From assembly GCF_044647545.1 (NCBI RefSeq), contig NZ_CP172818.1: a stretch of 64,000 nt of DNA. One strand, 5' to 3'. The translations under genes were made by a program, and so were the position numbers. This document shows, piece after piece, positions 12,092 to 47,481 of the stretch (positions are counted from its first letter, which is position 1; every line of letters begins with the position of its first letter). The stretch is from Escherichia coli. Its GTDB lineage: Bacteria; Pseudomonadota; Gammaproteobacteria; Enterobacterales; Enterobacteriaceae. The notes beneath the pieces were generated by a model, which did no database searches, had not been told where the DNA came from, and saw nothing but the letters and a program-made list of their open reading frames with translations.

Positions 12092-13390
12092 ATGCGTAAA
12101 ATTAAAGGGTTACGTTGGTATATGATCGCACTGGTGACGCTCGGCACCGTGCTTGGTTACCTGACGCGTAACACTGTGGCGGCAGCTGCGCCAACTCTGA
12201 TGGAAGAGTTAAACATCTCCACCCAACAGTATTCCTATATCATCGCAGCGTATTCTGCTGCTTATACGGTCATGCAACCGGTAGCGGGTTATGTACTGGA
12301 TGTGCTGGGTACGAAAATCGGTTATGCAATGTTTGCTGTACTGTGGGCCGTATTCTGTGGTGCAACCGCGCTGGCAGGTAGTTGGGGTGGCCTGGCTGTT
12401 GCTCGTGGTGCGGTCGGTGCCGCGGAAGCCGCGATGATTCCGGCGGGTCTGAAAGCCAGCTCCGAATGGTTCCCGGCGAAAGAGCGTTCCATCGCGGTAG
12501 GTTACTTTAACGTAGGTTCTTCGATTGGTGCGATGATTGCGCCGCCGCTGGTGGTATGGGCAATCGTGATGCACAGCTGGCAGATGGCATTTATCATCTC
12601 CGGTGCGTTGAGCTTTATCTGGGCGATGGCATGGCTGATTTTCTACAAGCATCCGCGCGACCAGAAACATCTGACCGATGAAGAACGCGACTACATTATT
12701 AATGGTCAGGAAGCCCAGCACCAGGTTGACACAGCGAAGAAAATGTCCGTTGGTCAGATCCTGCGCAACCGTCAGTTCTGGGGTATCGCGCTGCCGCGCT
12801 TCCTGGCAGAACCGGCATGGGGTACTTTTAACGCGTGGATCCCGCTGTTCATGTTTAAAGTTTACGGCTTTAACCTGAAAGAGATCGCGATGTTTGCCTG
12901 GATGCCGATGCTGTTTGCTGACCTCGGTTGTATCCTCGGTGGTTACCTGCCGCCGCTGTTCCAGCGTTGGTTTGGTGTGAACCTGATCGTTTCCCGTAAG
13001 ATGGTCGTAACGCTGGGTGCTGTGCTGATGATTGGCCCGGGTATGATCGGTCTGTTCACCAACCCGTATGTCGCGATTATGCTGCTGTGTATCGGTGGTT
13101 TTGCTCACCAGGCACTGTCTGGCGCACTGATTACGCTCTCTTCTGACGTGTTCGGTCGTAACGAAGTGGCGACGGCGAACGGTTTAACCGGGATGTCCGC
13201 ATGGCTGGCAAGTACGCTGTTTGCACTGGTAGTCGGTGCACTGGCTGACACCATCGGCTTCAGCCCGCTGTTCGCAGTTCTGGCAGTGTTCGACCTGTTA
13301 GGTGCGCTGGTTATCTGGACCGTGTTGCAGAACAAACCGGCGATTGAGGTGGCGCAGGAATCACATAACGATCCCGCACCGCAACATTAA
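12092..13390 (+). CDS. exuT: Hexuronate transporter (MFS)
   Basis: Start at [10 protein letters not shown] with upstream tgagg RBS gives 432 aa. Confidence 0.85.
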
Positions 13391-23545: not shown

Positions 23546-23931
23546 TCAAGAAAATGCCAGGAACGGAGAAACACAAAGCAACAAACCAGTGACGATAATC
23601 AGGTACAGAGACATCCCTTTGTATTTGTGCAATGCCGGTACTTTGTAAACCAGCCACGCCGGGATCAGGCACCCTACCATGCCGAAAATCGGGCTACAGA
23701 TAGAGGTGAAGCTCAACACCGGTGCGTTCAGTACGATGGCGCTCCAGGCCAGCAAAATGGCGAAAATCATGATGCCGCGCTGAACGAGATTTTCGTTAAT
23801 CTTCTCGGCAGGCATCTTGCGACGCAGGATGTTCATTACGATCCCTTGCGTTGCTTCGCGAAAGCCTAAATAGACGCCAAAAAACGCGGTCATTACTGCA
23901 AAGATATTGAGAATGACGCTGACCCTTTCAC
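23546..23931 (-). pseudogene. cyuP: 3' fragment of the cysteine transporter gene cyuP (yhaO); 5' part replaced by anomalous sequence
   Basis: Reading frame ends ...VSVILNIFAVMTAFFGVYLGFREATQG...LLLCVSPFLAFS; upstream of codon ~23931 the frame runs into G/P/W-rich low-complexity translation. Confidence 0.75.
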
Positions 23932-24645
<714 letters not shown>

Positions 24646-24893
24646 TTACCGAAAGCGTCAAAGAAAATGCTTATCTTATCGATCCAAAAATTAATTACAA
24701 TACAGATTTAAACATAGAGGATTCTAGCTCAGAGGAATTCCTTTCAGATAATACACTAGAGAAAGACGAAAATTCTCCTGACAATTGCTTTGAGGTCGTA
24801 AAATATAACACATATGAAGCTTATAACTCAGAGAAGCAATATTTTACCAGAGAGGACTATACGTATGATTACGACCTTTTAAATGCAATATAG
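24646..24893 (+). pseudogene. AT-rich 3' gene fragment, possibly the end of yhaC
   Basis: In-frame translation ...ENAYLIDPKINYNTDLNIEDSSSEEFLSDNTLEKDENSPDNCFEVVKYNTYEAYNSEKQYFTREDYTYDYDLLNAI*; position just upstream of the rnpB terminators; identity to yhaC not verified. Confidence 0.3.
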
Positions 24894-24949
24894 ACTTAAT
24901 AATTTCTTACAAAGTCTATTATTAATACCGTAGATATTTATTCATCTTA

Positions 24950-25025
24950 CTCCAAAAGCAAAAACCCGCCGAAGCGGGTTTTTATAAAGCTCCAAAAGCA
25001 AAAACCCGCCGAAGCGGGTTTTTAC
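24950..25025 (-). terminator. Tandem direct repeats each carrying a hairpin terminator downstream of rnpB
   Basis: Two copies of ctccaaaagcaaaaacccgccgaagcgggttttta (24950-24987, 24990-25025); on the minus strand cccgcttcggcggg followed by a T run. Confidence 0.7.
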
Positions 25026-25032
25026 GTAAAAC

Positions 25033-25409
<377 letters not shown>

Positions 25410-25441
25410 GGCGCGCAGTATAGAGGGTTTGCGCGCCCTTG

Positions 25442-26587
25442 TCACCCCGCGTTGCGCATTCCAATCGCCAGTGTCGCGGCGATATTACGTGAAGCACGGT
25501 AAATATTGTCATAAGCCCCGCGGAATGCTTCGTCCAACGTACCAATACTGGTCAATACGCTGAAGACCGCATCAATGCCATGCTGATGTACAACGCCAAC
25601 ATCATTGGTCAGGCTACCCGCAATGCCAATCACCGGTTTATGGTACTTTTTCGCCACGTTTGCGACGCCAATCGGAACCTTGCCGTGTATACTCTGGCTG
25701 TCAATACGCCCTTCACCGGTGATCACCAGCGTACAATCGTGAATATGTTCCTCCAGATTCAGCGCCGTAGTGACGATTTCAATACCACTTTTCAGTTCCG
25801 CACCAAGAAACGCCATTAGCGCCGCGCCCATACCACCCGCAGCTCCTGCGCCGGGGACATCTTTCACATCAACATGCAGCGCTTTTTTAATGACATCGGC
25901 ATAGTGAGAGAGGTTATTGTCCAGCTCAACAATCATCGCTTCACTGGCTCCCTTTTGTGGGCCAAAGATGCGCGATGCGCCGTTATCGCCCACCAGCGGA
26001 TTGGTGACATCACAAGCGACGCGAATGACGCAATCTTTTAAGCGCGGATCGAGGCCGGAAATATCAATATCATTCAGAGTATTAAGACTACCGCCGCCAA
26101 AACCAATTTCATTGCCGTTGGCGTCGCATAATTTCGCCCCCAGCGCCTGTACCATGCCTGCACCGCCATCATTTGTAGCGCTACCGCCAATGCCGATAAT
26201 AATGTTTGTCGCGCCGCTCTCCAGCGCCTGCAGAATTAACTCGCCTGTGCCGCGTGAAGTGGTCACGAGTGGATCACGTTTTTCCGCAGGTACCAGCTCC
26301 AGCCCACTGGCCGCCGCCATTTCAATAAACGCGGTTTTGCCATCGCCGGAGATCCCCCAACTGGCATTCACCTTCTCGCCCAGCGGCCCTGTAACCCAGG
26401 CGTGACGTTCGGAACCCTGGGTGGCTGCAATCATCGCTTCCACCGTTCCTTCGCCACCGTCGGCAACAGGAACAGAAACGTACTGTGCATCAGGAAAAAT
26501 TTCCCGAAATCCTTTTTCTATCGCCTGCGCAACCTCGCTGGCAGATAAACTTTCTTTATAAGAGTCTGGGGCGATTACGATTTTCAT
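25442..26587 (-). CDS. garK: Glycerate 2-kinase
   Basis: Start at MKIVIAPDSYKESLS gives 381 aa. Confidence 0.9.
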   Translation of the reverse strand: MKIVIAPDSYKESLSASEVAQAIEKGFREIFPDAQYVSVPVADGGEGTVEAMIAATQGSERHAWVTGPLGEKVNASWGISGDGKTAFIEMAAASGLELVPAEKRDPLVTTSRGTGELILQALESGATNIIIGIGGSATNDGGAGMVQALGAKLCDANGNEIGFGGGSLNTLNDIDISGLDPRLKDCVIRVACDVTNPLVGDNGASRIFGPQKGASEAMIVELDNNLSHYADVIKKALHVDVKDVPGAGAAGGMGAALMAFLGAELKSGIEIVTTALNLEEHIHDCTLVITGEGRIDSQSIHGKVPIGVANVAKKYHKPVIGIAGSLTNDVGVVHQHGIDAVFSVLTSIGTLDEAFRGAYDNIYRASRNIAATLAIGMRNAG

Positions 26588-35517: not shown

Positions 35518-35919
35518 ATGGAAATCAGTCTGTTGCAGGCATTCGCGTTGGGCATTATCGCCTTTATCGCTGGCCTGGATATGTTTAACGGCCTAACCCA
35601 TATGCACCGCCCGGTGGTCCTCGGCCCGTTGGTCGGGCTGGTACTTGGCGATCTGCATACCGGTATTTTAACCGGCGGTACGCTGGAACTGGTGTGGATG
35701 GGGCTGGCCCCGCTGGCGGGCGCACAGCCGCCTAACGTGATTATCGGTACTATCGTCGGCACGGCGTTTGCCATTACTACTGGCGTGAAACCCGATGTCG
35801 CGGTCGGTGTCGCCGTACCTTTCGCTGTCGCAGTACAGATGGGGATTACCTTCCTGTTCTCGGTGATGTCCGGCGTGATGTCCCGCGGCGACCTGGCAAC
35901 AAACCCGTGCCGCGTTTGA
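35518..35919 (+). pseudogene. agaW: Truncated PTS EIIC gene (agaW'), K-12-type
   Basis: 133 aa EIIC N-terminal fragment ending abruptly (...DLATNPCRV*). Confidence 0.8.
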
Positions 35920-38986: not shown

Positions 38987-39463
38987 ATGAGCAGTCCAAA
39001 TATTCTCTTAACCCGTATTGATAACCGTCTGGTTCACGGTCAGGTTGGCGTGACCTGGACATCCACCATCGGTGCGAATCTGTTGGTAGTCGTGGATGAT
39101 GTTGTCGCTAACGATGATATTCAACAGAAATTAATGGGTATTACCGCAGAAACCTACGGCTTTGGCATTCGTTTCTTTACTATCGAAAAAACCATTAACG
39201 TCATCGGCAAAGCTGCACCGCATCAGAAGATCTTCCTGATTTGCCGTACGCCACAAACGGTACGTAAATTGGTAGAAGGTGGTATTGACCTGAAAGATGT
39301 CAACGTCGGCAATATGCATTTCTCGGAAGGGAAAAAGCAAATCAGCAGTAAAGTTTATGTCGATGACCAGGATCTCACGGACTTACATTTTATTAAACAA
39401 CGTGGCGTGAATGTTTTCATTCAGGACGTCCCTGGCGATCAAAAAGAACAAATCCCTGACTAA
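38987..39463 (+). CDS. agaB: PTS galactosamine-specific EIIB
   Basis: 158 aa ORF; paralogous to agaV (LxRIDxRLxHGQVG N-terminus). Confidence 0.9.
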   Translation: MSSPNILLTRIDNRLVHGQVGVTWTSTIGANLLVVVDDVVANDDIQQKLMGITAETYGFGIRFFTIEKTINVIGKAAPHQKIFLICRTPQTVRKLVEGGIDLKDVNVGNMHFSEGKKQISSKVYVDDQDLTDLHFIKQRGVNVFIQDVPGDQKEQIPD

Positions 39464-41086: not shown

Positions 41087-41953
41087 ATGGAACGAGGCAC
41101 TGCGTCTGGCGGTGCCTCTTTACTTAAGGAATTTCATCCTGTGCAAACCCTTCAACAAGTTGAAAACTATACGGCGTTAAGTGAACGTGCCAGCGAATAT
41201 TTATTGGCCGTGATCCGTAGTAAACCGGATGCCGTGATTTGCCTGGCGACCGGAGCCACGCCATTACTGACGTATCATTATCTGGTAGAAAAAATCCACC
41301 AGCAGCAGGTTGATGTCAGCCAGCTCACCTTCGTGAAGCTCGACGAATGGGTGGATCTGCCATTAACAATGCCTGGCACCTGCGAAACTTTCCTACAACA
41401 GCATATCGTGCAGCCGCTGGGGCTGCGTGAAGACCAGCTCATCAGCTTTCGCTCTGAAGAGATAAATGAGACAGAGTGCGAACGGGTAACGAACCTGATT
41501 GCGCGCAAAGGCGGTCTGGATTTATGCGTTCTCGGATTGGGGAAAAACGGTCATCTTGGGCTGAACGAACCGGGAGAAAGCCTGCAACCGGCCTGCCATA
41601 TCAGTCAACTTGATGCCAGAACACAGCAACATGAGATGTTAAAAACCGCGGGCCGTCCCGTGACTCGTGGGATCACCTTAGGCCTGAAGGATATTCTCAA
41701 TACCCGCGAAGTTTTGCTACTGGTGACTGGCGAAGGAAAGCAGGATGCGACAGAACGTTTTCTCACGGCTAAAGTCTCTACCGCTATCCCGGCTTCTTGG
41801 GGCAACGCCCACACTCTCCCCCTGCTGCTCCAGTGCATACTTATACAGCGCATTTTTCTTCACGCCGTGAATTTCTGCTGCCAGCGCCGCCGCTTTTTTC
41901 AGTGGCAGTTCTGCCTGCAACAGCGCCAGCGTGCGCAGGGCATCGGCGGGTAA
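41087..41953 (+). pseudogene. agaI: Glucosamine-6-phosphate deaminase/isomerase-like gene with altered 3' end (native stop lost; frame runs antisense into rsmI)
   Basis: ORF is 288 aa versus an expected ~251; tail after ~41815 is the antisense of the rsmI 3' end. Confidence 0.7.
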
Positions 41954-46325: not shown

Positions 46326-46440
46326 GCCATTGATCGGTCGTTGAAGTAAATATTCACACCTTAGCCGACCTGTTCCCCTCACCCTAACCCTCCCCAAACC
46401 GAAAGGGGACAGATCAGGCTGTATTCAGGAGCATCCAACA

Positions 46441-47481
46441 TCAGGCCAACAGCGCCAACCCGCCGACAATCACACCAGACACTGCCACCATCGCCCCTGT
46501 CAGCCATAAGGCTTTCGCCGGGAACGCTTTGCGCAGCATAATCAGTGACGGCAAACTCACCGCCGGGAGCGTCATCAACAATGCCAGCGCCGGAGCGGTT
46601 CCCATGCCTGCCAGCATCATCGTTTGTACAATCGGAATTTCTGCTGCCGTGGGAATGACAAACAAGCATCCTGCCACCGCCATCGCCACCACCCACATCA
46701 GGCTGTTATCGACAGCACCATCGGCATGGGGGAATAACCAGACGCGAGCGGCACCCAACACCAGTACTGCAAGGATGTAAACCGGGATCGTACTCCAGAA
46801 AAGCGTCCATAGCGCCCTGCCCCAGCGGCTAAAAAATCCTCCCTGTGCTTCCGGTATGTCAATTTCGACCGGTGCCTGCGTTTGCGGTGTTTCACGCACC
46901 CATTTTTGCACCAGCGTCGCAATCAGCAACACCATCACCAGCCCCGCCACCAGACGAATCGCGGCAAAGCCCCAGCCAAGGACAAATCCCATGAATACCA
47001 GCGTCGCCGGGTTTAACAACGGATTCCCCATCCAGAATGCCAGCGCGCCCCCCATCGATACCTGTTGACGCCGCATTCCCGCCGCGACCGGAGCCGCACA
47101 GCAGGTACACATCATGCCCGGCAGCGAAAACAGCGTTCCCAGCAGCGTGCCGCGAAAGCGCGATTGCCCAAGCGTACGCAATAACCAGTCACGCGGGATC
47201 AGCACCTGAATCAACGACCCGAGCAGTACGCCCAGCACCGCCGCTTTCCATACCGCGAGGAAATAGATCATCGCGTAATCCAACGCCGCCTGCCACGGAT
47301 TAGCATCCGCCTGCGCAAGGATAGATTTACCGATACTGTGGGTTTCGGCAGCAGTAAACGCTTTGCCGTAGTAAGGTTGCCATTTCACATACCAGAGACC
47401 AGCAATGACAACGAGAAAGAAAAGCGCGGGTTTCCACCACTGAATGGGCGTTGCCGCCTGAGATGAAGACTGACCAGTCAT
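46441..47481 (-). CDS. yraQ: Putative permease (DUF318)
   Basis: 346 aa membrane ORF. Confidence 0.85.
   Translation of the reverse strand: MTGQSSSQAATPIQWWKPALFFLVVIAGLWYVKWQPYYGKAFTAAETHSIGKSILAQADANPWQAALDYAMIYFLAVWKAAVLGVLLGSLIQVLIPRDWLLRTLGQSRFRGTLLGTLFSLPGMMCTCCAAPVAAGMRRQQVSMGGALAFWMGNPLLNPATLVFMGFVLGWGFAAIRLVAGLVMVLLIATLVQKWVRETPQTQAPVEIDIPEAQGGFFSRWGRALWTLFWSTIPVYILAVLVLGAARVWLFPHADGAVDNSLMWVVAMAVAGCLFVIPTAAEIPIVQTMMLAGMGTAPALALLMTLPAVSLPSLIMLRKAFPAKALWLTGAMVAVSGVIVGGLALLA

Follow-up and report, generated by a model that had tools for sequence, protein, structure and literature searches.

The DNA directly behind rnpB in the window studied here (the whole stretch of Escherichia coli DNA that was analyzed, 64,000 nucleotides long) carries two identical hairpin-forming repeats in close succession, and this raises two questions: what is the repeated unit, and does the second copy belong to the organism or only to its sequence record? 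The analysis described below establishes what the unit is, where it lies and how it folds, and also the uniqueness of the arrangement and the corruption of the sequence next to it. The proximal copy is, as far as sequence and position can tell, the native terminator of rnpB. The distal copy we would attribute, with a probability of roughly 0.55, to an error of the sequence record.

A preliminary description of the locus had reported two direct repeats of about 38 bp, each with the hairpin cccgc-ttcg-gcggg and a U run on the rnpB strand. A repeat search of the window found both copies, with their hairpins, in the place given, while their length had to be corrected: the exact repeat is 35 nt, 100% identical between the copies (CTCCAAAAGCAAAAACCCGCCGAAGCGGGTTTTTA, at 24950-24984 and 24990-25024), and the period from start to start is 40 bp, the copies being joined by TAAAG at 24985-24989. 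The 35-mer occurs at these two sites only, with no other site in the 64-kb window at three or fewer mismatches, and the number expected by chance, judged from 100 shuffles of the window, is 0.00. Tandem Repeats Finder (TRF) did not list the pair, which amounts to only 1.9 copies. Read on the minus (rnpB) strand, each copy gives AAAAACCCGC-UUCG-GCGGGUUUUU-GCUUUUGGAG, with AAAAACCCGC-UUCG-GCGGGUUUUUGCUUUU as the shorter form of the hairpin, and the gap from one hairpin to the other is 16 nt. The repeats lie directly 3′ of rnpB, with garK behind rnpB. The features of the locus, in the direction of rnpB transcription, are the following.

25417 to 25445, minus strand: sigma-70-like promoter match GTGACA-17-TATACT, a consensus match only (10/12), ending 8 nt upstream of the rnpB 5′ end
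25033 to 25409, minus strand: rnpB, RNase P RNA (M1 RNA), class A; Rfam RF00010, 318.6 bits, model positions 1-367 of 367; rnpB in the annotation of all relatives
24990 to 25024, minus strand: proximal 35-nt copy, read as the native T1 intrinsic terminator of rnpB; MS6198 has its only terminator at this position, with this sequence
25000 to 25023, minus strand: proximal extended hairpin, 24 nt
25005 to 25009 and 25014 to 25018: proximal core stem, with the loop at 25010 to 25013
25004 to 25000, on the RNA strand: proximal U-tract, followed by GCUUUU at 24999 to 24994
24985 to 24989, no strand: 5-nt linker TAAAG, with no counterpart in relatives
24950 to 24984, minus strand: distal 35-nt copy, the extra one, which replaces the 7 nt CACTATG of relatives
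24960 to 24983: distal 24-nt hairpin, with its U-tract on the RNA strand at 24964 to 24960
24651 to 24893, plus strand: 3′ remnant of yhaC, convergent with rnpB; 100% identity with yhaC of MS6198 as far as the repeat

Both copies have the build of an intrinsic terminator. A 5-bp G+C stem closed by a UUCG loop (CCCGC-UUCG-GCGGG) is lengthened to 10-12 bp by A:U pairs, with the tract UUUUUGCUUUU immediately behind it, and the whole lies just downstream of a transcribed gene and on its strand, the proximal hairpin starting 9 nt past the end of rnpB. The calculated fold energies are −8.7 kcal/mol for the core stem-loop and −14.0 kcal/mol for the 24-mer extended hairpin. Together with the rnpB 3′ trailer the proximal copy reaches −19.4 kcal/mol (z = −4.65), and the distal copy reaches −15.8 kcal/mol; in context the z-scores of the hairpins run from −4.0 to −4.7, and no shuffled sequence equaled the native stability. 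A consensus terminator scan of the window called neither hairpin, probably because the stem was run on through the A-U pairs, which left a tail, GCTTTTGG, with fewer than five T.

In the K-12 MG1655 genome two segments, 3270060-3270094 and 3270173-3270207, match the 35-nt unit at 100% identity; they belong to two units 3′ of rnpB. We identify the repeat as the core of T1, the canonical Rho-independent terminator of rnpB in E. coli. The proximal copy does not differ from K-12 T1 in any way, and its distance to the mature rnpB 3′ end is as in the relatives; the distal copy differs from it in its upstream context, where the linker UAAAG takes the place of the ACGUAAAA trailer. In its K-12 form the rnpB terminator is a standard part that has been put to use in vivo and in vitro: Cambray et al. 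had it in their panel of terminators and remarked on its extended, A/U-paired outer stem (PMC3643576), and it serves in in vitro transcription templates, for which Kim et al. 1996 is cited (PMC6610125). The preliminary reading of the units as terminator hairpins on the rnpB strand thus agrees with what was found, since the proximal copy occupies the site of the relatives' single terminator and shares its 35 nt with the K-12 core.

Under this assignment, an RNA polymerase running past rnpB would release its transcript some 33-39 nt beyond the mature 3′ end (25033), at about 25000-24994 judging from the geometry of hairpin and U-tract. The proximal copy would be expected to act as it does in any E. 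coli: the hairpin would form in the nascent RNA, release would follow in the U-tract, and the trailer would presumably then be trimmed to give mature M1 RNA. The M1 RNA precursor is about 36 nt longer and is then trimmed, in agreement with the predicted length. The preliminary description had also pointed to 3′-end mapping of rnpB transcripts; the literature searched yielded no usable published statement on it.

It is worth pointing out that the unit has the features of a terminator in either direction: with an A-tract (A5) in front of the stem and a T-tract (T5) behind it, each strand gives a hairpin followed by a U-tract, as expected of a bidirectional terminator. The unit lies between two genes, yhaC (plus strand) and rnpB (minus strand), that are convergent in all relatives; of yhaC, the window keeps no more than the final 243 nt. 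On the plus strand the hairpins read AAAAACCCGC-CGAA-GCGGGUUUUU, and the fold energy of AAAAACCCGC CGAA GCGGGTTTTT is −13.1 kcal/mol there versus −14.0 kcal/mol on the minus strand. In context the plus-strand folds reach −14.8 and −15.4 kcal/mol.

Two hairpins in series invite comparison with the tandem terminators known elsewhere, of which rrnB T1-T2 is an example. The likeness to rrnB T1-T2, and to engineered double terminators, is that two hairpin and U-tract signals follow each other, for which an additive tightening of termination is expected. There are two differences. The signals in the window are identical and only 16 nt apart, so that a read-through RNA may refold into a nested duplex, and the repeat in the DNA is itself a substrate for slippage.

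Such a duplex is also one reason to ask whether the repeats might encode something other than terminators, be it a small protein, a small RNA or a mobile element of the REP type. A read-through RNA could form a long nested duplex of −42.1 kcal/mol, as compared with −29.6 kcal/mol for two local hairpins, and a 44-aa open reading frame spans the units. This ATG frame (24942-25076, minus strand) starts within the 3′ end of rnpB and crosses both terminator copies; it depends on the duplication, being present only through it, and is very likely spurious. Only rnpB passes the Rfam thresholds. A dispersed element of the REP or BIME kind was considered and rejected, as the window holds only two adjacent copies in 64 kb. 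The hairpin sequence itself is generic: the exact 24-mer AAAAACCCGCCGAAGCGGGTTTTT is found verbatim at more than 120 loci in the species-representative genomes scanned, mostly in Proteobacteria, with Pseudomonas, Enterobacter, Citrobacter, Yersinia and Massilia among the carriers. The 24-mer appears to be a general terminator sequence that has arisen repeatedly, and it is uninformative on the rnpB locus. Taken with the lack of dispersal of the unit, these observations make a function of the repeats other than termination extremely improbable.

While the unit is easily named, its second copy is much harder to place. The flanks in the window are 100% identical to ST648-like genomes such as MS6198, and the nearest relatives, which otherwise differ by 0-3 SNPs per 10-20 kb, are all single-copy. 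Their sequence reads ...CATCTTA-CACTATG-CTCCAAAAGC...GGGTTTTTA-CGTAAAAC. Relative to it, the window has lost the 7 nt CACTATG, gained a 35-nt copy, and acquired five untemplated nucleotides, TAAAG. The change is a complex one, which a single step of tandem duplication from the ancestral sequence would not produce.

The arrangement was also sought elsewhere. The junction between the copies (a 51-mer) was present in 0/5,426 complete E. coli genomes, and the left junction CATCTTA|CTCC (a 56-mer) was likewise present in none of the 5,426, the best full-length matches all retaining the 7 extra nucleotides. Two hairpin copies spaced 4-34 nt apart were found neither in 100,044 GTDB species representatives nor in the JGI metagenomes. 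Judged by these searches, a second copy 40 bp on is no feature of any known E. coli lineage.

The idea that terminators behind rnpB sit in repeats of variable number is by no means new. Reed and Altman are said to have described 113-bp tandem repeats in the rnpB 3′ flank in 1983, reportedly in PNAS 80:5359. Terminators in copy-variable repeats downstream of rnpB are thus already known, at textbook level, and were described decades ago. In MG1655 the rnpB 3′ flank holds the 113-bp unit three times at exact 113-bp spacing plus one degenerate copy (about 3.5 repeats), and each unit consists of the terminator together with a duplicate of the final ~50 nt of rnpB. Across E. coli the 113-nt K-12 unit was found at 13,246 places in 5,395 genomes, with 1-9 places per genome and a median of 2. 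The natural copies inspected in sampled genomes were all at the rnpB locus, where the number of terminator-bearing units was as follows.

MS6198, HCM-24C-3, FDAARGOS_1298 and O157:H7 3-5-1: 1 unit
HYM1: 1 unit and a degenerate copy
O157:H7 Balcarce_14.2: 2 units, at 113-bp spacing
K-12 MG1655: 3 units
EC0880B: 4 units

The pair of O157:H7 strains, 3-5-1 with one unit and Balcarce_14.2 with two, shows that the classical repeat has recently changed its copy number in nature. The spacer holds three copies of the rnpB 3′ fragment in K-12, four in EC0880B, one each in HYM1, O157 Balcarce and 2013C-3513, and none in the window. Strain 2013C-3513, whose yhaC-rnpB spacer is 394 bp long, holds its one rnpB 3′ fragment without the exact CCCGCCGAAGCGGG hairpin and represents a putative variant terminator allele. 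Stbl4, with seven places, was considered as a natural high-copy variant and set aside: its extra copies stand beside tRNA genes in what is apparently an engineered cassette. These extra 113-nt units (NZ_CP081009.1, 4539474-4542625) lie beside tRNA-Val, tRNA-Gly and transposase fragments, and they inflate the count of places per genome.

The preliminary description had seen in the repeated units a potential substrate for copy-number variation by recombination, and had proposed a comparison of copy number among E. coli genomes. The comparison bears this out for the locus, and for the 113-nt unit, which varies from 1 to 9 places in 5,395 genomes and from 1 to 4 units at the sampled loci. It does not do so for the 40-bp unit of the window: there is no copy-number series of it, the arrangement being unique to the window (0/5,426), and the unit that varies is the one of 113 bp. 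The recombination part of the claim is weakened further in that the duplication lies some 300 bp from grossly corrupted sequence, so that the record, and not biology, may be the source of the supposed substrate.

The array and the pair in the window do have something in common, namely the T1 hairpin core within the unit and the head-to-tail arrangement of terminators directly downstream of rnpB. They differ in the unit, which in K-12 is 113 bp long and includes the rnpB 3′ fragment, and in the window has a 40-bp period and consists of the terminator only. They also differ in that copy-number polymorphism among strains belongs to the 113-bp unit, whereas the 40-bp arrangement has no other carriers. 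One could still imagine that the pair is the decayed remnant of a K-12-type array, in which an internal deletion took out the rnpB 3′ fragment between two terminators. Both copies do correspond to the core of the 113-bp unit, and degenerate distal copies exist in HYM1 and K-12. Yet the nearest relatives are single-copy and lack the array altogether, what flanks the terminator within the 113-bp unit (CGTAAA... on one side, ...GCCC on the other) matches neither TAAAG nor the left context, and the loss of the 7 nt would be left unexplained. We regard such a remnant as very improbable.

What distinguishes the window from an ordinary genome record is the state of the sequence next to the repeats, and of several other places within it. 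The relevant sites are these.

23937 to 24650, no strand: corrupted low-complexity stretch, C-rich and G-rich, 714 bp, with a G28 run at 24603-24630
13436/13437, 35884 to 35893, 39152 to 39160 and 41796 to 41818: structural sites that are private or K-12-like

The 714-bp stretch ends 299 bp before the repeats, and the intervening 299 bp match the relatives exactly. It stands in place of 12.3 kb that all relatives have, comprising the 5′ part of cyuP, tdcGFEDCBA, tdcR, yhaB and the greater part of yhaC. In the middle of the stretch lies a remnant of tdcE, 75% identical with 16% gaps, nearly all of which are deletions, and a 1-nt deletion is present already at 23925, ahead of the stretch. Foreign DNA was considered as a source and rejected, as a plasmid search showed degraded tdcE instead. 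An exact 36-mer from the stretch had 0 matches in the metagenomes. In all, the 714 bp look like corrupted sequence, either uncorrected or collapsed, and not like a biological insertion.

Several further irregularities were seen across the window, the rest of which differs from MS6198 by a handful of SNPs only. In the dolP-yraQ spacer (46390-46445) a hairpin of the relatives, CCCTCTCCCCAAAGGGGAGAGGG, is destroyed, with six bases deleted and several substitutions within ~50 nt; there are only 2 SNPs in the 22 kb around it, and two of the small deletions match the gap pattern of K-12. Between agaI and rsmI, a 22-nt scar at 41796-41818 takes the place of 108 bp. At the exuT-exuR junction (13436/13437) a 5.3-kb CS1-type fimbrial operon is missing, and no complete genome matched this junction at more than 89%. 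The aga region shows the junction of a K-12-type 2.3-kb deletion though its flanks are 100% MS6198-like, and in agaB the IS1 carried by all close relatives is absent from the window. The combination of near-perfect ST648-like bases with a private or K-12-like structure suggests that the record is flawed, of the assembly, chimera or consensus type. A simple K-12-guided consensus was considered as the source of the record: it explains several of the K-12-like indel states, but neither the many small indels relative to K-12 nor the junk in the tdc region.

It is against this background that the origin of the second copy has to be judged. We favor an artefact in view of two junctions that are private to the window, of the complexity of the change, and of the corrupted sequence that adjoins it; the error-like patches at 41796-41818 and 46390-46445, and the other private or K-12-like junctions, are part of the same argument. 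The error could have come about if the single-copy terminator was reconstructed twice beside the badly assembled stretch, which would have left the distal copy in the record. There are good points on the other side. The copies are perfect and the 299 bp of flank match the relatives exactly, which is unlike noisy sequence, and this locus has been shown to be a hot spot of tandem duplication in nature. In addition, palindromic hairpins favor slippage and template switching, and these can yield complex changes.

The competing possibility, to which we would give somewhat less than even odds, is that the second copy is a genuine and very recent private duplication, that it arose when replication slipped or switched template at the quasi-palindrome of the terminator, and that the two copies form a compact double terminator. 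T1 would then still set the normal 3′ end of the precursor, and the distal copy would catch read-through ~73-79 nt past the mature end, and likewise the yhaC transcripts that arrive from the opposite direction. The 35-nt repeats, only 5 nt apart, would readily collapse to a single copy by a deletion that does not need RecA. Such a duplication would be in keeping with the perfect copies and flanks, with the natural gain and loss of terminator units at this locus (1-9 matches per genome; one versus two in O157:H7, three in K-12, four in EC0880B), and with the ability of each copy to fold independently. Double terminators made by concatenation are, moreover, known as a functional design, having been built by Cambray et al. 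(PMC3643576). Against it stand the searches, with 0/5,426 E. coli genomes and none of the GTDB representatives or metagenomes showing the arrangement, the need for more than one step from the ancestral sequence, and the gross corruption next door together with the several other private, error-like junctions in the window. An error of the record therefore remains our preferred reading of the distal copy.

Whichever the origin, the second copy would be nothing new in kind; an identical second terminator would bring slightly tighter termination at most, together with an unstable 35-nt repeat. There is a more general warning in the locus, namely that the window has corrupted, chimeric-looking stretches, and that its private structural features, the 40-bp duplication included, need support at the level of reads before they are given a biological reading. 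Should the distal copy prove real, it would act as a fail-safe second terminator that catches read-through about 40 nt later, while the normal 3′ end would be unaffected, since the nascent transcript folds the first hairpin alone. In that case the pair would be a minimal tandem terminator of very recent origin, evidence that the rnpB 3′ flank of E. coli yields new unit sizes besides the one of 113 bp, and it would offer a natural pair of single- and double-copy loci in which read-through and repeat instability could be measured.
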